From: Patescibacteria group bacterium
Lineage (GTDB): Bacteria > Patescibacteriota > Minisyncoccia > UBA6257 > 2-01-FULL-56-20
Assembly: GCA_018971305.1 (NCBI GenBank)
Contig: JAGXBC010000005.1
Span: 1-48,209, forward strand
Direction of reading: 5' to 3'
Length of the DNA stretch: 48,209 nucleotides
Shown one piece after another: positions 1 through 44,169 of this stretch. The translations under genes were made by a program, and so were the position numbers. The notes below the pieces were generated by a model. The model ran no database searches, was not told the DNA's origin, and saw only the letters and a program-made list of their open reading frames with translations. The number at the start of each line of letters is the position of its first letter. The first letter of the stretch is position 1.

Positions 1-889
1 GTTTTAGCCTTGCGGCCGTACTTCCCAGGCGGCCTGCTTAACGCGTTAGCTCCGCCGCTCCGAGGGTCGATACTCGAAACAGCAAGCAGGCATCGTTTAG
101 GGCGTGGACTACAAGGGTATCTAATCCTTTTTGCTCCCCACGCTTTCGCATCTCAGAGTCAGGAAGGTCCCAGTGCCCTGCCTTCGCCTTTGGTGTTCCG
201 CACGATATCAACGGATTTCACCCCTACACCGTGCGTTCCAGGCACCTCTAACCTCCTCTAGTTTTGTCGTATCTCCTGCACTTCCACCGTTGGGCGGTGG
301 GCTTTAACAAAAGACGCACAAAACCTCCTACATGCTCTTTACGCCCAATAAATCCGGATAACGCTTGAGGTCTACGTATTACCGCTGGTGCTGGCACGTA
401 GTTACCCACCTCTTTCCGTATGGTACGATCATTTGCATTTTTCCCATACTACCGCAGTTTACAACCCGAAGGCCTTCATCCTGCACGCGGCGTCGCTCGA
501 TCAGGCTTTCGCCCATTGTCGAATGTTCTTGACTGCTGCCTCCCGTAGGAGTACGAGCCGTGTCTCAGTCTCGTCGTTGGGGGTCAGGCTCTCACCTCCC
601 CTACCCGTCGTAGCCTTGGTAGGCCGTTACCCTACCAACTAGCTGATGGGACCTAGGCCGCTCTAAGAGTGTCTTGCGACTTTGGATGCGAATGACTTTC
701 GTCCCCGCATCATCATCGGGAATTACCCCGCCTTTCGGCGAGCTGTGCCCGTCTCTAAGGTACGTTACCAAGGTGTTACTAACTCGTTCGCCGCTCATTA
801 TCTTCCTTGCGGAAAATAATGCGCTCGACTTGCATGCCTTATCCACGCCGCCAGCGTTCATCCTGGACCAGGATCAAATCCTCAGTTAA
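1..889 (-). rRNA. rrs: 16S ribosomal RNA, 5' ~890 nt (gene continues beyond window start)
   Basis: The reverse complement carries the universal 16S blocks. These are GGATTAGATACCC (plus 115-127), ACTCCTACGGGAGGCAGCAG (plus 533-552), the 515 region GTGCCAGCACCAGCGGTAA (plus 379-397) and the 5' end GATTTGATCCTGGTCCAGGATGAACGCTGGCGG (plus ~845-885). Spacing between the blocks matches a normal 16S. Confidence 0.95.
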
Positions 890-1409: not shown

Positions 1410-1655
1410 ATGGCTAAAAAAGATTTACACCCAACCTACTTTCCGGAAGCTAAAGTTAAATGCGCCTGCGGCAACACATTTACGGTAGGGGCAACCAAGC
1501 CCGATATTTACGTGGAAATCTGCTATAAATGCCACCCCTTCTACACGGGCGAGGAAAAACTGATAGACACCGCCGGAAGATTAGAGAAATTCAAGACACG
1601 CCGTTCTAAAGCGTCCGCACCAAAACCTAAAAAAGTAAGAGCGAAGAAGAACTAA
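1410..1655 (+). CDS. rpmE: 50S ribosomal protein L31
   Basis: [24 protein letters not shown]...CHPFYTG is the typical L31 N-terminus with its Cys motif. I used the internal ATG of ORF 1389..1655. Confidence 0.9.
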
Positions 1656-1660
1656 TAAAA

Positions 1661-1690
1661 ATATCCCCGCCGGCGGCGGGGATATTTTTA
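1661..1690. terminator. Bidirectional rho-independent terminator
   Basis: There is an 11-bp GC-rich stem, ATATCCCCGCC-GGC-GGCGGGGATAT. It is flanked by an A-run upstream and a T-run downstream and sits between convergent rpmE and the response regulator gene. Confidence 0.7.
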
Positions 1691-1698
1691 TTTAGATA

Positions 1699-2097
1699 CT
1701 ATACGATTCCCAAGAACCCCTTAACTTTTTCTACCAACTTTTTCGGATCCTCTGTTTTTTTGATATAGTCCTCCATCCCTAATTCTTTGGCTACGTCCGA
1801 TTTCTCGCCAACGATAGCCGGCCAAGGATTATCCCAACCGGTAAGAAAGGCTATCTTAATGTCGCTTGTTTTTGGATTTTGTTTTATCTTCAGGGCGGCA
1901 TCAACACCGTTCATGACCGGCATTTTTATGTCCATTAAAATCAAGTCCGGCAGTAAAGTTTCCGCCTTGTTTATACCCTCTTCGCCATTCGTCGCAGGCG
2001 CGACGTCAAAACCGGAAGCCATAAGCACTTCGGCCGTGGAATCACGAAAATCACGATCGTCGTCAACTAAAAGTATTAATGGCTTTTCTCTTGTCAT
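1699..2097 (-). CDS. Stand-alone response regulator receiver (CheY-like, no output domain)
   Basis: LILLVDDD...DLILMDIKMP...K are receiver-domain motifs. The protein is 132 aa and lies directly downstream of the kinase gene. Confidence 0.9.
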   Translation of the reverse strand: MTREKPLILLVDDDRDFRDSTAEVLMASGFDVAPATNGEEGINKAETLLPDLILMDIKMPVMNGVDAALKIKQNPKTSDIKIAFLTGWDNPWPAIVGEKSDVAKELGMEDYIKKTEDPKKLVEKVKGFLGIV

Positions 2098-2101
2098 AAA
2101 T

Positions 2102-2830
2102 CTATTTTAACACCGACAGCGAAAAACTGAAAGTTGAGCCCTTGCCGTCACCCGCGCTCTCTGCAAAAATTTTTCCTCCATGAGCTTCAACTATATTCCT
2201 GGCGATATGCAAACCGATTCCGCTACCTTTCATTTTATGGTCAACGCGTTCATCGCGCATGAATTCTTTAAAAAGCAGCGGCTTGACCCCCTTGGGTATT
2301 CCAATGCCAGAATCGGCGACGGAAAACACGGCCTCTCCGCCTATTTCCCGAACGTTCACATTTATAAATCCCTTCTCGGTATATTTGATGGCATTATCAA
2401 CTAAGTTCTGCACGACGTGCTTCATCTCTCTCGGATCAGCGTTAACAAAGATGTCGTGCGCCGATGCGGTAAATGTCATTTTCAAACCTTTTGTTTCCGC
2501 AAGAATCCTGATTCCCTCCACAACGTCTTTAGTCAAACCGACCAAATCGGTTTTAGAAAACTCGTATTCCATCTTACCCTCCTCCACTTTCCGCAAATCT
2601 ATCGTATTAGTAACCAACTCTATGGCGTTGTCCGCGGCAGCTTCTATTTTTAGGATGATCTCCGCCTCCTTATTGCTGATTTTTCCGTAATTGCCGTCAC
2701 GCAAAAGCGTGGCGTAATTCTTAATAACTGCCAAAGGCGACTTTAGTTGATGAGAAACAACCGAAAGCAATTGACTCGTAAAGTCGTTAATAGTTTTTCC
2801 CTTGCGGATATTTTTATTTATGCCTGCCAT
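2102..2830 (-). CDS. Histidine kinase, cytoplasmic, HisKA + HATPase_c only (no TM or sensor domain)
   Basis: The H-box is SHQLKSPLAVI and the N, G1 and G2 boxes are present (NLVDNAIKYT, DSGIGIP, GSGIGL). The protein is 242 aa. Confidence 0.9.
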   Translation of the reverse strand: MAGINKNIRKGKTINDFTSQLLSVVSHQLKSPLAVIKNYATLLRDGNYGKISNKEAEIILKIEAAADNAIELVTNTIDLRKVEEGKMEYEFSKTDLVGLTKDVVEGIRILAETKGLKMTFTASAHDIFVNADPREMKHVVQNLVDNAIKYTEKGFINVNVREIGGEAVFSVADSGIGIPKGVKPLLFKEFMRDERVDHKMKGSGIGLHIARNIVEAHGGKIFAESAGDGKGSTFSFSLSVLK

Positions 2831-5704: not shown

Positions 5705-6313
5705 CTATTCCAGTATCCCATCCAAATTCACATCATAAAGCATCGCTTCGTTAACAAGGCGGTAATTTATAAGTTCGTGCTGAGTGAACCAAAGAACAAT
5801 TTCTTTTTCGGCATCGTCCGTTGAGCCGGAACAATGCACAAGGTTGCGGACCGCGCGTGAATCTACATCAGAAACTTCGTAGGAATCAATCGTAAAATCT
5901 CCGCGGATGGTTCCCATATCCGAAGTCAGTGGTTCCGTGCCGCCTGTTATCTTTTTTACTATTGCCTGCGCATGAATCCCCTGCCAGACCATCGCTATAA
6001 CCGGACCTTTTGTCATATACTTTTTTAAATTATTCAGAATCACTTCGGTAACTTTGAGCGGGTCCTCGGACGGGGGCTTTTTGCCTTTCTTCTTGTATGA
6101 CTCAATCGTCTTTACGCCCGTCTTCACGCGCCATTCGGGATCAATAAGATAATGTTTCTCAATTAGTTCCATTGTTGGCACTGTCATTTTGAGACCGACC
6201 AGTTTTAAACCGGCCTGCTCATAACGCCTGATAATTTCTCCTATTAAAGTCCGCTGAACGCCGTCTGGTTTGATTATTACTAATGTGCGTTCGTATTTTG
6301 GGTGTTTGTTCAT
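5705..6313 (-). CDS. ndk: Nucleoside diphosphate kinase (long form with internal insertion)
   Basis: ERTLVIIKPDGVQR and the active-site region NLVHCSGS are present. At 202 aa it is longer than the usual ~140-150 aa. Confidence 0.9.
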   Translation of the reverse strand: MNKHPKYERTLVIIKPDGVQRTLIGEIIRRYEQAGLKLVGLKMTVPTMELIEKHYLIDPEWRVKTGVKTIESYKKKGKKPPSEDPLKVTEVILNNLKKYMTKGPVIAMVWQGIHAQAIVKKITGGTEPLTSDMGTIRGDFTIDSYEVSDVDSRAVRNLVHCSGSTDDAEKEIVLWFTQHELINYRLVNEAMLYDVNLDGILE

Positions 6314-7695
6314 TTTTTTGATTTCTTGATTTCTAATCCTAACTCATCCAATTGTTTTTTGCCAACTTCGCTTGGGCTGCCCATCATTGGGTCGTAACCC
6401 TCGCCTGTTTTCGGAAACGCGATAACTTCGCGGATATTCGGCTCGTTCTGTAAAAGAGATACGAACCTGTCCAGCCCCCAAGCAATTCCGCCGTGCGGAG
6501 GAGCTCCGGAACCAAGCGCTTCCAGCATATGGCCGAACTTGCCCACAATTTCTTGGTCTTCGTATCCCATTACTCGGAATACGGATTTTAAAGCTTCCGG
6601 ATTGTGATTGCGAATACTGCCGCCGCCAATTTCCAATCCGTTCAAAGCAACATCGTACTGAGTAGTCAAAATTTCGGCGATATTTTTTTGCGCCAATAGA
6701 TCGTCCATAAATTCCGGCTTGGGCGCGGAAAACGGATTGTGAGTAAATGTCCATTTGTCATCGTCCGTCTTTTCAAAAAATGGAAAATCTATTACCCAGC
6801 AAAACGCCAGAAGGTTCGGGTCGTTCTTATCCGTACGCAAGTCAGGCCTGTCTGTTTTATATTTTTCCATCGCTTCTTTATAACTCAAGCGCGGGAAAGG
6901 AATCTCTTGTATCTTTTTCTCCGGATAAACGCTTTTAACAATATTTATCAGGAGCTCTTCGTTCAATTTCATTACATCTTCCCTCTCAACAAAACTCATC
7001 TCCATGTCCAATTGGGTAAATTCCGGCTGTCTATCGCCTCGCGTATCCTCGTCGCGGAAACAACGTGCTATCTGGAAATATTTTTCCAAACCCGCCACCA
7101 TCAAGAGCTGTTTATACTGCTGTGGGGACTGCGGCAAAGCATAAAACTTTCCCTGCCAGAGGCGTGACGGCACAAGATAATCCCGCGCGCCTTCCGGAGT
7201 TGACTTGGAAAGATTGGGGGTTTCAATCTCCAGAAATCCCCTTTCGTCCATAAAATCGCGTATGTATTTTATTATTTTATGGCGCGAAACGATGTTTTTG
7301 GTTAAGCGTTCGCGGCGCAGATCGAGATATCTGTATTTAAGACGCGTTTCTTCGCTTATTTCGTAACCATCCGTATCTACAGATATAGGCATCGCAACAG
7401 ACGCATTAAGAATTTCCAGCTCCTTAGCAGAAACTTCGTGGCGACCGGTCGGTATTTTGTCGTTAATCATATTTTCGGGCCGTTTTTTAACCTCGCCTTT
7501 TACGCGGATAACGTATTCCAGACGCAACTCCGACGCTTCTTTAACTCCCGGACCGAAGACAACCTGAACTATCCCGCTCCTGTCGCGTAAATCGATAAAA
7601 ACCAGCTTTCCGTGGTCGCGACGGGCATGAACCCAGCCAGCAAGCTCAACTTCCCGGCCTTCGTTTTTTATAATATCGCTTATCTGAATTCGCAT
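6310..7695 (-). CDS. aspS: Aspartyl-tRNA synthetase, bacterial type without the GAD insertion domain
   Basis: It has an OB-fold N-terminus and the class II motifs FRDEDTRGDRQPEFTQLD and GGGSIR. The protein is 461 aa. Confidence 0.95.
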   Translation of the reverse strand: MRIQISDIIKNEGREVELAGWVHARRDHGKLVFIDLRDRSGIVQVVFGPGVKEASELRLEYVIRVKGEVKKRPENMINDKIPTGRHEVSAKELEILNASVAMPISVDTDGYEISEETRLKYRYLDLRRERLTKNIVSRHKIIKYIRDFMDERGFLEIETPNLSKSTPEGARDYLVPSRLWQGKFYALPQSPQQYKQLLMVAGLEKYFQIARCFRDEDTRGDRQPEFTQLDMEMSFVEREDVMKLNEELLINIVKSVYPEKKIQEIPFPRLSYKEAMEKYKTDRPDLRTDKNDPNLLAFCWVIDFPFFEKTDDDKWTFTHNPFSAPKPEFMDDLLAQKNIAEILTTQYDVALNGLEIGGGSIRNHNPEALKSVFRVMGYEDQEIVGKFGHMLEALGSGAPPHGGIAWGLDRFVSLLQNEPNIREVIAFPKTGEGYDPMMGSPSEVGKKQLDELGLEIKKSKK

Positions 7696-7812
7696 TTAAA
7701 TGAAATGTTGTATAATTGAGATTATACCAGGCAGCGAGTAGAAAATAAACAAGCAACACGTGTTTATTTTCTAGGAGCGAACCTGGTTCATGAGTGCGAC
7801 GATTATAATCAA

Positions 7813-8289
7813 ATGTTAACTTTTGAACAAATGGTAATACGCCTTGCCGTAGCTCTTGCGCTGGGGGCACTGATAGGTTTGGAGCGCGAGCTCGTCGGCA
7901 AAGAAGCCGGTATCAGAACGACAATGCTTGTCTCGGCCGGAGCCGCGATCTTCTCCATGATATCCATAGAACTCCCATATATAATATCAGTCTCCCCTGC
8001 GAATCTTCCTGATGTGATAGCAAGAAACAGCGGTTTTCTGGGAGTCATCGCAAATATAGTAGTGGGGATAGGATTCCTCGGTGCCGGAATAATTTTAAAA
8101 ACAGAAGAGCGTGTTCATAGTTTAACGACAGCGGCCGTCGTCTGGGTTGCCGCATCAATAGGAATTCTAGTGGGAATAGGACTTATGGAATTCGCAGTTG
8201 TCTCTACCATAATTATCTCCGGCTTACTTTACTTCTTAAGAAAGATCAGGTTGTACGAACACATCCGTAACGGTAGCTCTGAATCTTAA
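7813..8289 (+). CDS. mgtC: MgtC/SapB family membrane protein
   Basis: The N-terminus IRLAVALALGALIGLERE is the MgtC family signature. Confidence 0.85.
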   Translation: MLTFEQMVIRLAVALALGALIGLERELVGKEAGIRTTMLVSAGAAIFSMISIELPYIISVSPANLPDVIARNSGFLGVIANIVVGIGFLGAGIILKTEERVHSLTTAAVVWVAASIGILVGIGLMEFAVVSTIIISGLLYFLRKIRLYEHIRNGSSES

Positions 8290-8306: not shown

Positions 8307-10835
8307 CTATCTTTTCCCGGCTTCTATTAAGTAGCCGTATTTTCGGTAGAAATATTTCTTGGCGACCTGCACGGCAAATAGATATAGAGTCACGATAGAC
8401 GCCAGAGAAATCAATACTTTCGGAGCGGCAATTATAAAATCAAACAAATGCCCGATACTCATATACGGCAGGAGCCAGGCAAAAGCCACTACGCCAACTA
8501 CCGCCGCCACAAGTAATTTACTTGGTTTGGTCTTTAACAGACCCTCCCTATTGCGGATAACGCCGACAACCAAAGCCTGAGTTGCTATTGATTCCAAGAA
8601 CCATCCCGTCTGAAACCCGGAACCGATCAAATCAAAACCATATAAAAGGACCATAAAAGTCAGAAGGTCAAAGCAGGAGCTGAGCGGCCCGAAAATAAAC
8701 ATGAACTTTTTCATAAATTCCAGGTTGAATTTTTTCGGACGCTTTAAAAACGATTCCTCCACGTTATCGAACGGAATGGCGAGCTGGGACCCGTCATATA
8801 AAAAATTATTCAAAAGGATCTGCGATGGCGTCATAGGTAAGAAACTAACAAACAAAGAAGCTATGGGCATGCTGAACATATTGCCGAAATTGGAGCTCAG
8901 CGCCATCATCAGGTATTTAAAGGTATTGGCGAACGTCTTCCGACCCTCAACCACCCCCTCAATAATTTCGCTCAATCCCTTATGAAGCAAAATGATGTCA
9001 GCCGTGTCTTTGGCGATATCAACCGCATTATTAACAGACACGCCCACATCTGCTTCTCTTAAAGGCAAAGCGTCGTTCACGCCATCTCCCAAATATCCGA
9101 CGACGTGGCCATTCTCGCGCAAGGCTTTGATAATTATCTGCTTTTGTTCGGGAACAACTCTGCTGAATAAATTCGTGGTCTCAACTTTTTTACGAAGTTC
9201 CGGGTAATCAAGCGCCTGTAATTCCGGACCGTCCAGAACCCCTTTAATCTCAAACCCGATATCTCTGGCAATTTTTTCACTAACGAGCCTGTTGTCTCCG
9301 GTTATAATTTTTATGTCCACATTATGGGCCAACATTTTCTGAATGGTATCTTTTGCCGTTTTTTTAGCTGGATCAAGAAAAGCCAGAAATCCAAGAAAGG
9401 TCATTCCCGTTTCGTCGGCAACAGAATAAACGGGGCCGCGCTTTGTTACTGTTTTTATGGCAACGCCTAGAACACGAAAGCCGTCCGAACTCAGACTCTT
9501 ATATTCGTCATCTATTCTTTCCAGCAAATCGCCGTTCAAGGCGCTATCTTCTTCACCGTAGAATTGGGATATTTTGAATATTTCTTCCGGCGCCCCCTTG
9601 GCGATCAAAGCAATTTTGCTGCCATCTCTCATCACAACAGAATCACGCTTTCTTTCTGAGTCGAAGGGTATTTCGTCTACTTTTTCCCAATTTTTTATAT
9701 CCGGAATATTTTTAACTTCTTCTACCGCCCTTTCTAAAGTTCCGCGCACGCTCGTTGTGTTGATGCTTGCCAAATATCCCCAAAAAAGAACTTCGGAGCT
9801 GTCGCGGCCCAAGCCATCAACATGCTTTATGAGGGAAATTTTATCTTCGGTAAGAGTTCCTGTTTTGTCCGTACAAAAGACATCAATACTGCCGAAATTA
9901 TGTATAGCCGATAACCTTTTTACTATCACGCCGCCTTCCGACATCCTAAGCGCTCCTTTTGCCAGATTGGCCGTGATTATCATCGGTAACAGTTCCGGCG
10001 TAAGCCCGACGGCGATTGCCACGGCGAACAAAAATATTTCCAGTGGCGGCTTTCTTTCGAAAAATATATTGAGAAAAATAATGACCAAAACCAAAAAAAT
10101 GGCCAGCTTAAAAATAAACAAGCTGAAGTCCTTGATATTTTTTTCAAATTCCGTCGGCGGAGGAGATTTAGTGAGCTTACCTGCGATCTCCCCCATCCTG
10201 GCCTTACTGCCAGTTCTTGCAGCTATTACGGACCCTGTTCCGGAAACCACGCTCGTACCCATATAGACAATCCTGTTCTCCTCCGAAACGATGTCTTTCT
10301 CTTTCGGCAAAGATTCTCCGGTTAGAATGCTTTCGTTTACGAATAAGTCTTTGCCATCAAATAAGACACCATCAGCAGGAACAAGATCTCCGGCAACAAG
10401 AGAAAAAATGTCTCCCGGAACAATGTCTTGGATTCTTCTCTCTTTGATTTCTCCGTTGCGCCAGACTGATGCGGTAATATTTACTCTCTCCTTCAAGGCC
10501 TCCGCCGCTCGTCCAGACTTATAGGTATTCAAAAAATCTATGAACGTGCTGCCGAAAACTATTATTAAAATTATTAAAGCGTTAATTTCCGAACCTAAAA
10601 ATCCCGATACTATGGCAGCTACTATCAGGAGTATCAATAAAGGATTTCTAAATTTGGACAAAAATACCAAGAAGGGAGCTAATTTTTTCTCTCCTAAAAG
10701 TCGGTTCGGTCCAAAAAATTTTAATCTCTTGGAGGCCTCCTGAGAAGACAGCCCTTTGGGAGAAGTCCGTAAATATCTGAAAATCTCTTCCGGTGTTTTC
10801 CCGGATAAATTACTGAGGTTTTGCATATCTTCCAT
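8307..10835 (-). CDS. mgtA: Mg2+-importing P-type ATPase
   Basis: The TGES, DKTGTLT and GDGVNDA motifs are present and the overall layout is MgtA-like. I set the start at the ATG (MEDMQNL), because the extension in the track ORF would run through the rnpB terminator and 3' end. Confidence 0.9.
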   Translation of the reverse strand: MEDMQNLSNLSGKTPEEIFRYLRTSPKGLSSQEASKRLKFFGPNRLLGEKKLAPFLVFLSKFRNPLLILLIVAAIVSGFLGSEINALIILIIVFGSTFIDFLNTYKSGRAAEALKERVNITASVWRNGEIKERRIQDIVPGDIFSLVAGDLVPADGVLFDGKDLFVNESILTGESLPKEKDIVSEENRIVYMGTSVVSGTGSVIAARTGSKARMGEIAGKLTKSPPPTEFEKNIKDFSLFIFKLAIFLVLVIIFLNIFFERKPPLEIFLFAVAIAVGLTPELLPMIITANLAKGALRMSEGGVIVKRLSAIHNFGSIDVFCTDKTGTLTEDKISLIKHVDGLGRDSSEVLFWGYLASINTTSVRGTLERAVEEVKNIPDIKNWEKVDEIPFDSERKRDSVVMRDGSKIALIAKGAPEEIFKISQFYGEEDSALNGDLLERIDDEYKSLSSDGFRVLGVAIKTVTKRGPVYSVADETGMTFLGFLAFLDPAKKTAKDTIQKMLAHNVDIKIITGDNRLVSEKIARDIGFEIKGVLDGPELQALDYPELRKKVETTNLFSRVVPEQKQIIIKALRENGHVVGYLGDGVNDALPLREADVGVSVNNAVDIAKDTADIILLHKGLSEIIEGVVEGRKTFANTFKYLMMALSSNFGNMFSMPIASLFVSFLPMTPSQILLNNFLYDGSQLAIPFDNVEESFLKRPKKFNLEFMKKFMFIFGPLSSCFDLLTFMVLLYGFDLIGSGFQTGWFLESIATQALVVGVIRNREGLLKTKPSKLLVAAVVGVVAFAWLLPYMSIGHLFDFIIAAPKVLISLASIVTLYLFAVQVAKKYFYRKYGYLIEAGKR

Positions 10836-10841
10836 AATGTA

Positions 10842-10870
10842 ATTATCGGCTGTAATTATCCTATTGGCAA
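10842..10870 (-). promoter_or_regulatory. Candidate mgtA promoter (TTGCCA-17 nt-GATAAT), leaderless configuration
   Basis: On the minus strand TTGCCA lies at 10870-10865 and GATAAT at 10847-10842. The ATG follows 6 nt later at 10835 and there is no SD. Confidence 0.5.
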
Positions 10871-10896
10871 AATAGAAAATCCCGCTTGTGGCGGGA
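10869..10896 (-). terminator. rho-independent terminator of rnpB
   Basis: The minus strand reads TCCCGC-CACAA-GCGGGA followed by TTTTCTATTTT. It begins 9 nt after the 3' strand of the P1 helix. Confidence 0.65.
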
Positions 10897-10905
10897 CTTC
10901 CTTTT

Positions 10906-11670
10906 GCTGGTAATTCGTAAGCCGGATTCTGTGCCGATTCGGCCCGAGCTCTGCGAGGTTTCCGAATCGAGCACCCCGCCATCGGCGGGGTCCCGCCTCC
11001 GCTTTCGCTTCTGCGGGATACTCGATTTTGTAACCTCACAAAATTCGGACAAAATCGGTAACGATAATTTATCTGGTCCTTCGGTTGCCCTCAGGATAAA
11101 GTCCTTCGCTTGCGCTAGGGGCTATGCGGCACTTCCCGATTTTACATCGGGACACGGCCTTGCACCCAATAAGGATTTAGCCGTTTCATTTCCGCCTTTC
11201 TATCTCTATAGCGGAAGTGGACCTGCGCCCTCTGCGCAAATGCAACGAGCTATTGGAAGCTCAAAATTCTGGTGATCTCGCGACGCGACGACGAAGACGT
11301 GCTTTATGCACCTCGAGGAGGAGCAACAAAGAGATCGCAGAATTTTGAACTTCTCTTTGAGCCAGAATATTTTTTCTTCTGGCGTTGTTGCTTGTCGCTC
11401 GAGTACACGAAGTACACTTCGCTCCGCGCGCCTAGCCATAAGAAAAAATCTTTCTGGCCAATACTCGCTGGATTTGTGCAGAGGGCGCTTCTACGTTGAG
11501 ATTGGGTCCTCCTTCGGCTTTCGCTTCAGGACGTTTCTGCTCGCACCTCTCGCATTACTGCGGCAGGCTGTTAGCCTGTACTATTTTATCCGCCAGCTGG
11601 CGGATGGTGTCCGGACTTTCCTCCGAAGCACATAAGTTTTATGTGCTCGGTAATCGTCTGAATTACCAGC
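10906..11670 (-). ncRNA. rnpB: RNase P RNA (bacterial type A core) with large expansions, ~765 nt
   Basis: The P4 5' strand GAGGAAAGTCCGGAC is the complement of 11609-11623. The P4 3' strand ACAGAATCCGGCTTAC is the complement of 10917-10932. The terminal helix pairs GCTGGTAATTC (11670-11660) with GAATTACCAGC (10916-10906). The gene has its own promoter and terminator. Confidence 0.9.
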
Positions 11671-11676
11671 TCTTAT

Positions 11677-11698
11677 ATTATAGCACAATATCGCAAAA
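11677..11698 (-). promoter_or_regulatory. rnpB promoter (TTGATT-16 nt-TGcTATAAT)
   Basis: The minus strand carries an extended -10, TGCTATAAT, with TATAAT at 11682-11677. This places +1 at the first G of the P1 helix, 7 nt downstream. Confidence 0.55.
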
Positions 11699-11704
11699 AA
11701 TCAA

Positions 11705-12553
11705 TTATCCTTGCGTTGGCGCTGGGGTTATTTTCAGCGACCCATTATCCAAAGCATCTACGGTAAAAAATGTCTGCTGATTGCCATTGGGGTCTCGGAC
11801 AGAAATAATAACCTCCTTTCTGTCTGCCGTAATCGGAAAAGCAACTCTTTGGGACGTAAGCTCAGAATTGGATGGCGTACAATTGTTGTCCAGAAGCGTG
11901 GGCGTTCCCAGATTGCCGCTCTCATCCAAGATTACCCTTAAGCCATAGCTGCTTAACGCCGACGTGCAAAATCCACCGAAACCGCTCTGAATATTCATCG
12001 TAAGGGTAAGGGCATATGTTGTATTGGTTCCAAGAACTGTTTGCCCCAAAGAGGCGCCGGTGAGTGAAATTGTTGCTCCGTTAATCCCCTGCCAGGAAAC
12101 CGAATAAGGATAAGGCAAAGAAATGGTATAAGCCGGAGACGTTGGTTGGGGTTGTATTGGGGTTGTGTCTTTTTGCTGGCCTCCGTTATCGGTTACAATC
12201 GTCTGTTGATTTTGTCCGACGTTAGTATTCTGAGAAATGTCCGGGGCGCCAACTATTTCTATCCCGGAGGCAGCACTCTGATATTGTACTCCCAAATAAA
12301 AAGCAACGAATGGCAGTATCACGAACAAAGCCATAGCCAATATCTTGGAATACCAAGTTACCTCGTTCCATTTTATGCGACTACCCTTTTCTTCGGAGCG
12401 AAATTTATCTTGCAGAGATTCCGGATACCGCTTTTCAAAGATATGGGCTAGGGGCTCGGTTTCCGTAAAATATTTTCCGCTATCCGGGAAACCGGTACCG
12501 GTTTCGTTCCTTGGGATTGATTTGTTGCGCGGATCTTTATTATTTTTTTTCAT
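11705..12553 (-). CDS. Hypothetical membrane-anchored secreted protein
   Basis: The ORF is 282 aa with a single TM helix (ILAMALFVILPFVAFYLGV) after a charged N-terminus, and a Thr/Gln/Asn-rich ectodomain. Confidence 0.7.
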   Translation of the reverse strand: MKKNNKDPRNKSIPRNETGTGFPDSGKYFTETEPLAHIFEKRYPESLQDKFRSEEKGSRIKWNEVTWYSKILAMALFVILPFVAFYLGVQYQSAASGIEIVGAPDISQNTNVGQNQQTIVTDNGGQQKDTTPIQPQPTSPAYTISLPYPYSVSWQGINGATISLTGASLGQTVLGTNTTYALTLTMNIQSGFGGFCTSALSSYGLRVILDESGNLGTPTLLDNNCTPSNSELTSQRVAFPITADRKEVIISVRDPNGNQQTFFTVDALDNGSLKITPAPTQG

Positions 12554-44098: not shown

Positions 44099-44169
44099 TG
44101 CCGGATCATCTAATGGTAGGATAATGGACTCTGAATCCATTCATCTTGGTTCGAATCCAAGTCCGGCAG
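44099..44169 (+). tRNA. tRNA-Gln (anticodon CTG), no encoded CCA
   Basis: I folded the cloverleaf by hand. The acceptor stem is TGCCGGA/TCCGGCA and the D arm is ATCT-AATGGTA-GGAT. The anticodon arm is ATGGA-CTCTGAA-TCCAT and the T arm is CTTGG-TTCGAAT-CCAAG. The discriminator base is G. Confidence 0.9.

Follow-up and report, generated by a model that had tools for sequence, protein, structure and literature searches.

We analysed a 48,209-nt stretch of DNA of a Patescibacteria group bacterium (contig JAGXBC010000005.1, positions 1-48,209, assembly GCA_018971305.1; hereafter the window), which encodes on its minus strand an RNase P RNA gene, rnpB, of approximately 765 nt (Table 1). The loop of helix P13 in this bacterial type A RNA contains a 264-nt block that is homologous to sequences in another rnpB gene, in 23S rRNA genes and in intergenic DNA of other organisms. 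We refer to the block as the module and to the loci compared with the window by L numbers.

The covariance-model (CM) search that had been named beforehand as a check on the gene places both P4 strands in a single molecule. Rfam model RF00010 spans 10903-11669(-) in one match (model positions 1-367, 32.9 bits, E = 2.3e-8; permissive filters, region searched alone). Direct reading reproduces the P4 strands, the end pairing in P1 and the terminator described in an initial annotation of this DNA; its promoter is also recovered and places +1 near 11670. The core helices P1-P5, P7-P12, P15 and P18 are present in canonical order (CM alignment, annotation of L004 and alignment A1 with relatives). At the gathering score of 100 bits RF00010 does not report rnpB in the window, and the threshold scan lists just a 16S rRNA fragment and a tRNA. 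The shortfall (32.9 versus 100 bits) is due to insertions, as the syntenic ortholog L004, which does not have them, scores 105.9 bits. Judged by its sequence, the locus is probably a working RNase P RNA gene of a Paceibacteria bacterium, a member of the candidate phyla radiation (CPR).

The downstream neighbour of rnpB encodes a Mg2+-type P-type ATPase (mgtA). The closest homologs of this ATPase (65-68% identity) come from sources with names such as Paceibacterota and Minisyncoccia (CPR). In the contigs of these homologs rnpB adjoins the ATPase gene as it does in the window, and its length varies: 359 nt in L004, 464 nt in L003 (RF00010 score 80.6 bits) and 614 nt in L001 and L002 (64.7 bits). 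Alignment A1 shows near-identical cores, with every RNA having its own helix-closed additions at peripheral sites. Since the syntenic relatives share nearly the same core at 359, 464 and 614 nt, the extra length derives from lineage-specific insertions. Core identity between the window gene and its relatives (67-74%) falls within the relatives' own range (68-77%), and the window gene thus has no sign of pseudogene decay. The single CPR RNase P RNA gene of about 765 nt proposed in the initial annotation is therefore supported both by the RF00010 span and by the syntenic relatives.

The 264-nt block lies at the 3' edge of the P13 loop. P13, named by its position as the first hairpin after P12, is a 5-bp stem that covaries among relatives (GGACC/GGTCC in the window, L003 and L004; GAGCC/GGCTT in L001; AAGCC/GGCTT in L097). 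The conserved loop sequence AUCUCAACGUAG is untouched. The alignment with relatives that the initial annotation had recommended finds the block missing from the syntenic rnpB genes of L001, L003 and L004, which continue CTCAACGTAGTYGGTCCAG uninterrupted through the site; the block is thus an insertion. The annotation's 17-bp helix, pairing 11472-11488 with 11225-11241 around 230 nt with one A.C mismatch, is borne out by direct reading. Its placement of the helix roughly at P12 has to be corrected, because the short P12 hairpin is intact and the insert sits one element further on. Likewise, its view of the locus as an rnpB expansion stands as regards a real, helix-closed insertion of about 230 nt and fails as regards origin: the insert did not grow in place, and a homologous module occurs at other loci.

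Table 1. Coordinates of the rnpB features, in the direction of transcription, and of other RNA genes in the window.
Feature	Position	Strand	Basis or remark
Promoter, sigma-70-type, TTGATT-16-tgcTATAAT, extended -10	11677..11704	-	10/12 matches, TG present
rnpB, bacterial type A, ~765 nt	10906..11670	-	RF00010; core identity to relatives as in text
P1 5' strand GCTGGTAATTC, pairing with GAATTACCAGC at 10906-10916	11660..11670	-	Direct reading
P4 5' strand GAGGAAAGTCCGGAC	11609..11623	-	CM and direct reading
Extra 18-nt hairpin ATCCGCC-AGCT-GGCGGAT between P5 and P7, P5.1-like position	11588..11605	-	14-nt CM insertion; A1
P12, short, intact	11506..11532	-	CM structure of insert-free L004 transferred through A1
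P13 5' strand GGACC, pairing with GGTCC at 11219-11223	11505..11509	-	Covariation in relatives
L13 loop 5' part CAATCTCAACGTAGAA	11489..11504	-	Conserved in relatives, intact despite insertion
Inserted RNA module, 264 nt	11225..11488	-	Missing in L001, L003 and L004; homologs elsewhere; fold and covariation
P13 3' strand GGTCC	11219..11223	-	Partner of 11505-11509
P14-position hairpin TTCCGC...GCGGAA	11190..11216	-	A1
Window-specific extra hairpin, ~19 nt, before P18	11102..11120	-	~25 nt missing from relatives in A1
P18, GCAA loop	11077..11096	-	CM alignment
Branched ~125-nt element closed by CCGATT/GAATCGG, P19 slot between P2 3' and P4 3' strands	10934..11058	-	CM insertion; A1
P4 3' strand ACAGAATCCGGCTTAC	10917..10932	-	CM and direct reading
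Intrinsic-terminator-like GC hairpin, then T-run GTCCCGCCACAAGCGGGATTTTCTATTTT	10869..10897	-	Direct reading
16S rRNA gene, 5' 900 positions, running off window start	1..889	-	No large insertion there
tRNA	44099..44169	+	

We identified eight distinct copies of the module, in which the fold is kept at 70-82% identity outside the window. BLAST of the block against all fetched DNA detected a full-length homolog (74% identity over 265 nt, E = 2e-38) in the rnpB gene of L097, a Candidatus Brennerbacteria metagenome-assembled genome (MAG). The L097 module occupies the P19 slot between the P2 3' and P4 3' strands, after RF00010 model position 320 and directly before the P4 3' strand (...GTCGCTG-G[module]TT-ACAGAATCCGGCTTAC), and the P13 loop of this RNA is empty. 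A metagenome scan for an exact 20-mer from a 20-nt invariant block recovered three further module loci with no rnpB around them. Additional copies were pulled from the protein database via spurious antisense open reading frames (ORFs) called across the element.

Two of these copies are associated with 23S rRNA genes. The L128 copy (with near-identical copies in L129-L133) lies against the 5' end of the 23S rRNA body, most probably inside 23S at E. coli position 8/9, with the helix 1 5' strand AAAAGUU upstream of the module. A location in the 23S leader had been considered for this copy and was revised on the helix 1 pairing, by a margin (-4.3 versus -3.6 kcal/mol) small enough to leave the revised site probable, not shown. 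The L136 copy lies inside 23S rRNA at E. coli ~1111-1119, in the bulge flanked by the GTPase-centre stem and the helix 42 3' strand. This position comes from a local alignment with E. coli rrlH, which ruled out helix 45 as the site of the copy; a BLAST search of E. coli genomes with the 23S flank of L136, a short and interrupted query, had returned no match. Of the remaining copies, that of L137 follows a same-strand tRNA at a distance of approximately 100 nt, and those of L126 (identical to L125), L134 and L135 are in intergenic spacers.

The module is thus a discrete element that occurs at different stable-RNA positions across genomes and is missing at the same positions in close relatives. 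It is found mostly inside stable-RNA genes and always in host orientation (5/5 stable-RNA contexts). Each locus has one copy, with no second copy in the window or in the other loci (1-14 kb each). Searches of ~1 Mb of CPR DNA with nhmmer and with a covariance model of the module (R1) yielded no copies beyond those already known, and a scan of viral contigs yielded none. One candidate from the metagenome scan, L127, was rejected as a chance 21-mer inside a coding region.

The eight copies were aligned (alignment A6), and an explicit structure was written on the alignment. All eight share a Y-shaped fold. Its closing stem consists of S1 (17 bp) and S2 (13 bp, one bulge) and amounts to 30 bp with one mismatch and one bulge. 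One arm, the long-range helix S3 (~22 bp), encloses a conserved internal loop and hairpin Hc; the other, formed by S4 (15 bp) and S5, encloses a second conserved loop and hairpin Hd. The window module alone folds at -121.3 kcal/mol (z = -8.5), and R1 scores the module at 272 bits in the sense direction versus 102 bits antisense.

Several observations support this fold. First, standard pairs fill 84.4% of cells in A6, versus 40-45% when the partners are slid by 1-3 columns. Second, 46 pairs are changed on both sides (13-27 with slid partners), and the covariation score is 0.314 (0.07-0.16 with slid partners); none of 500 shuffles reaches the observed values. Third, the S1/S2 and S3 strands of L126 and L134 are unrelated in sequence and still pair. 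Finally, the A.C mismatch in S1 of the window copy is an A-U pair in L097. The internal loops (GATCTCTTTGTTGCTCCTCCT, TTCGTCGTCGCG and GAGCGACGA..CAAC) are near-invariant and mutually complementary. The candidate loop-loop pairings GAGGAG/CUCCUC, GCGACGA/UCGUCGC and CAAC/GUUG are invariant and so show no covariation.

The module matches no family we searched for. ORFs across the region (77 aa sense; 75 and 109 aa antisense) have no Pfam match, in agreement with their description as non-protein-like in the initial annotation. A protein gene in the insert is ruled out by this result and by the one semi-conserved antisense frame, SRRDDE...EEEQQRDR, which is frame-shifted in the window and in L126. 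Rfam 15 gives only chance-level matches inside 11225-11488 at E <= 10 and no matches on the L126, L128 and L134-L137 copies. A small self-cleaving ribozyme, 6S RNA, signal recognition particle RNA and other Rfam families are ruled out by this lack of matches.

We next consider the module against rnpB length in general. AGGTGCGAGCAGARACG, a motif typical of the clade, retrieved at least 120 stretches from species-representative genomes, mostly Patescibacteria MAGs. For the 101 genes with both P4 strands anchored, among the matches listed and the other loci, the two P4 strands are separated by a median of 309 nt (upper quartile, 387 nt). The longest P4-to-P4 distances are 771 nt (L017), 704 nt (window) and 629 nt (L096), followed by L097, L001 and L040 at ~550-560 nt. 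The window rnpB is extreme in length, not unique. Rfam confirms rnpB in the long outliers tested, with matches that cover just part of the anchored span in L017, L097 and L118. Insertions of at least 40 nt in the surveyed genes concentrate in three areas: P5.1/P7-P9, the P15-P17 loops and the P19 slot. A P13-loop insertion was mapped in the window gene only among the rnpB genes surveyed; L118 has a 42-nt insert ~11 reference positions upstream.

Four additions at peripheral sites roughly double the length of the window rnpB: the P5.1-like hairpin, the 264-nt block, the hairpin before P18 and the P19-slot element. The last two account for the extra 3'-half hairpins reported in the initial annotation. 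The P5.1-like hairpin differs in size among the relatives in A1. The ~125-nt P19-slot element is common to L001 and L003, and L004 has a short hairpin only at that site. The hairpin before P18 (CCCTAGCGCAAGCGAAGGA) is similar to neighbouring P18 (TCCTGAGGGCAACCGAAGGA) and also to P12 (CCTGAAGCGAAAGCCGAAGGA), a resemblance that may reflect the local duplication of a hairpin with a GNRA cap.

Other additions were observed among the rnpB genes compared. In the 614-nt gene of L001 (3291-3904(-)), the P16/P17 loop region holds an AT-rich insert of ~170 nt packed with GAAATTCGAAA-like repeats, the P5.1-like hairpin is larger, and the strand of the gene relative to the ATPase gene is opposite to the window arrangement. 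Short inserts recur at different rnpB sites in three pairs: L017 ~86 and L050 ~281 (88% over 49 nt), L022 ~291 and L122 ~90 (89% over 36 nt, opposite orientation), and L072 ~358 and L090 ~143 (90% over 39 nt). L017, the longest rnpB seen, holds several related inserts.

Several module loci have additional features. In L128 (11246-11296, also in L129), an 18-bp hairpin (-26.5 kcal/mol) directly follows the 23S 3' end. AATATATCGCTGTATTT, present in its loop and 3' strand, matches the S2/S1 3' end of the L136 module exactly, and on this match the hairpin has the look of a 'solo stem' left by internal deletion of the module. Such a remnant hints that decayed modules could seed ordinary helix extensions. 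In L136 (~470-640(-), large-subunit model ~1218), an unrelated AT-rich insert of ~100 nt lies in the hairpin equivalent to E. coli helix 45, the classical site of intervening sequences (IVSs). In L134, the first ~58 nt of the module coincide with part of a transfer-messenger RNA (tmRNA) match (53 bits) that runs on the other strand (1563-1838(-) and 1780-2123(+)), reflecting either a mis-aligned tmRNA 5' end or truly overlapping genes. In L137, a direct repeat (TTAAAGCCCTGCATAGACC, two copies 12 nt apart) lies just upstream of the module (~2096-2155(-)), and its second copy enters the closing stem. The free-standing L126 module begins 3 nt from the start codon of a divergent 611-aa ORF (7808-7813; ORF 5975-7810, -), so that the 5' region of this gene has to extend, in antisense, through the module or past it.

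We consider it likely that the P13-loop block is a copy of a self-contained, non-coding, structured and movable module of IVS-like character, co-transcribed with its host in a working rnpB. The presence of the module at another rnpB site, in 23S rRNA and between genes suggests that the stable RNAs of these bacteria have been colonised by it. Changes in the terminal stem that preserve pairing, the orientation bias and the lack of target duplications together argue for selection at the RNA level and not for a classical DNA transposon.

Under this reading, the module would be transcribed as part of the host RNA and would fold on its own. The 30-bp closing stem would unite the module ends, allowing the interrupted host helix P13 to form, and closure of P13 would keep RNase P active. 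RNase III, whose gene rnc is retained in CPR bacteria (PMC12641178), could plausibly cut the closing stem. Because this stem is like the terminal stem of 23S IVSs, which RNase III cuts without religation, we regard two forms of the mature RNase P RNA as about equally probable: a two-piece RNA with the module released, or an intact RNA of ~765 nt with the module as a side-arm. The alternative raised in the initial annotation, an excised intervening sequence, would seem more plausible now.

The strongest rival explanation is a cellular gene for a non-coding RNA that has a function of its own and is sometimes nested in highly transcribed stable-RNA genes, where it would be expressed and then freed by processing at the closing stem: a gene within a gene, not a selfish insertion. 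The near-invariance of loops such as GATCTCTTTGTTGCTCCTCCT and TTCGTCGTCGCG, while the stems have fully diverged, is consistent with this explanation. So are the several copies that stand free in intergenic DNA and keep the closing stem there too, and the constant co-orientation with the host RNA. However, the module is very rare and its occurrence is patchy even between close relatives, a pattern not expected of a housekeeping RNA. Moreover, neighbouring genes are inconsistent, the free-standing L126 copy has no convincing promoter or terminator, and the L128 solo-stem remnant resembles the decay of a dispensable element. We therefore view a nested RNA gene as rather unlikely.

It is improbable that the module is a new self-splicing or protein-assisted intron whose flanks are ligated to leave continuous host RNAs. 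Group I and group II intron models have no match in window 10700-11900 at E <= 10 or on the other copies at E <= 0.001-0.01. The ends of the element pair flush with each other and not with exon sequence, some copies lie in intergenic DNA and antisense to the 5' region of a gene, and no flanking sequence is conserved between sites. An intron would nonetheless suit the residence of the module in essential RNAs, including 23S positions where a nick might harm, as well as its complex conserved core with invariant unpaired nucleotides and its strict co-orientation with hosts. Insertions in CPR rRNAs are also reportedly removed from transcripts, according to a passage in Tsurumaki et al., 2024 (PMC11270868).

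Similar doubt attaches to a miniature inverted-repeat transposable element (MITE) that is moved as DNA by a transposase encoded elsewhere, with the RNA fold as a by-product of its terminal inverted repeats. In favour of a MITE are the likeness of the module ends to 17-30-bp terminal inverted repeats, the scattered distribution, the solo-stem derivative with its internal deletion, and the recurrence of other short rnpB inserts at different sites. Against this, a target-site duplication is present in 0/8 copies, and the terminal repeats conserve pairing through compensatory changes and not sequence, as in the unrelated stems of L126 and L134. The internal helices and hairpins covary too, host-RNA orientation is kept in 5/5 cases, and neither the window nor any 8-kb locus has a second copy; a MITE is thus very unlikely. 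Least probable by far is an expansion segment grown in place by slippage or duplication and unrelated to other loci: extended helices are known in CPR RNase P RNAs (PMC8172020) and the hairpin before P18 looks like a local duplication, so that such growth is possible for the small hairpins, but it is excluded for the 264-nt block, which is homologous over its whole length to sequence at another rnpB site, in 23S and in intergenic DNA of other organisms and is wholly missing from relatives with a near-identical core.

Several points weigh against our preferred reading of the block as an IVS-like movable module. First, the covariation counts are inflated, because the eight distinct copies are related and form just two sequence groups. 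Second, neither transposition machinery, nor a target-site duplication, nor a multi-copy genome was seen in the 48-kb window and the 1-14-kb loci, so that 'mobile' describes the distribution alone. Third, the 23S sites of the module (E. coli ~8/9 and ~1111-1119, the helix 42 bulge) are not the classical IVS helices 25 and 45. Fourth, the module is rare, with 2 of ~100 rnpB genes surveyed among the matches listed and four metagenome loci by exact 20-mer. Fifth, the near-invariant internal loops suggest a function beyond that of a tolerated parasite. In addition, any choice between excision and retention of the module is a guess, and since the window covers 48 kb of the genome, a second, insert-free rnpB may exist.

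A bolder and doubtful possibility is that the module represents an undescribed autonomous class of structured RNA. It could be a ribozyme-like mobile element that inserts itself into exposed stable-RNA loops; alternatively, it could be a nested gene for a non-coding RNA that RNase III sets free. Carriers would then possess a two-piece RNase P, and solo-stem decay would be a general source of helix extensions in CPR rRNA and RNase P RNA.

These observations have consequences for how such genes are found and interpreted. Standard pipelines miss the window rnpB at its RF00010 score, and genomes of this kind are scored as having no RNase P RNA. At least one large CPR 'expansion' reflects the arrival of a ready-folded module and not slow helix growth, and the presence of the same module in 23S rRNA points to a single process linking rRNA and RNase P insertions. 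They also raise questions about a naturally split bacterial RNase P RNA, about ligand binding or catalysis by the invariant loops, and about the movement of a 265-nt non-coding element.

Repeats inside RNase P RNA have precedents. In 1997, Vioque reportedly described short tandemly repeated repetitive (STRR) sequences that lie within helix P12 of rnpB in cyanobacteria. These heptamer repeats are short, make P12 longer and remain in the RNA. The module recalls STRRs, which are genome-wide repeats, in occupying a peripheral RNase P RNA helix and being tolerated by the enzyme. Unlike STRRs, it is a 264-nt structured element of unique sequence, located in L13, with homologs in 23S rRNA.

CPR RNase P RNAs that fall below Rfam cut-offs, have 'large extensions of helices' and require manual refolding were described by Lui, Nielsen and Arkin (Lui et al., 2021; PMC8172020). 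Large size in CPR RNase P RNAs is thus known in general terms, and the window rnpB is an extreme case within a class that has been reported before: it too is a type A CPR RNA under the RF00010 threshold with large helix extensions. Across 35 genomes, that study described helices that were extended (P15, for example) or missing, and it identified no inserted sequence families. In contrast, the main extension in the window gene of ~765 nt is a discrete module common to 23S genes and other loci.

Insertions in CPR rRNAs have been reported at the tops and bases of stem-loops (Tsurumaki et al., 2024; PMC11270868), and also by Brown et al., 2015, as cited in PMC11270868. The 'uncharacterized ISs' of CPR 23S rRNA in this survey are short, have no intron signature and no ORF, and are suspected to be RNase III IVSs (PMC11270868). 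The L136 and L128 copies belong to this class. The survey covered rRNA genes only, does not mention RNase P, and defined no sequence families among ORF-less insertions (PMC11270868). In the open-access literature we encountered no study connecting insertions in RNase P RNA with those in rRNA, and no description of the module family, an absence that is no proof. A module family common to rnpB (two sites), 23S rRNA (two sites) and other loci appears to be new.

Besides that of Coxiella burnetii, the 23S rRNAs of Salmonella and Leptospira carry IVSs. In the Coxiella IVS, located in 23S helix 45, the terminal stem comprises 28 bp and is interrupted by one mismatch and one bulge; RNase III cleaves in the middle of this stem, and the resulting rRNA is in fragments yet functional (PMC4990558). 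The module stem is 30 bp, likewise with one mismatch and one bulge. Like the 23S IVSs, the module is helix-closed within a stable-RNA gene, missing from relatives and sporadic. Unlike them, the window copy has rnpB as its host. We know of no IVS reported in rnpB. The module also has no ORF, and its closing stem encloses several helices in a conserved fold with invariant loops, whereas the interior of IVSs is a simple hairpin.

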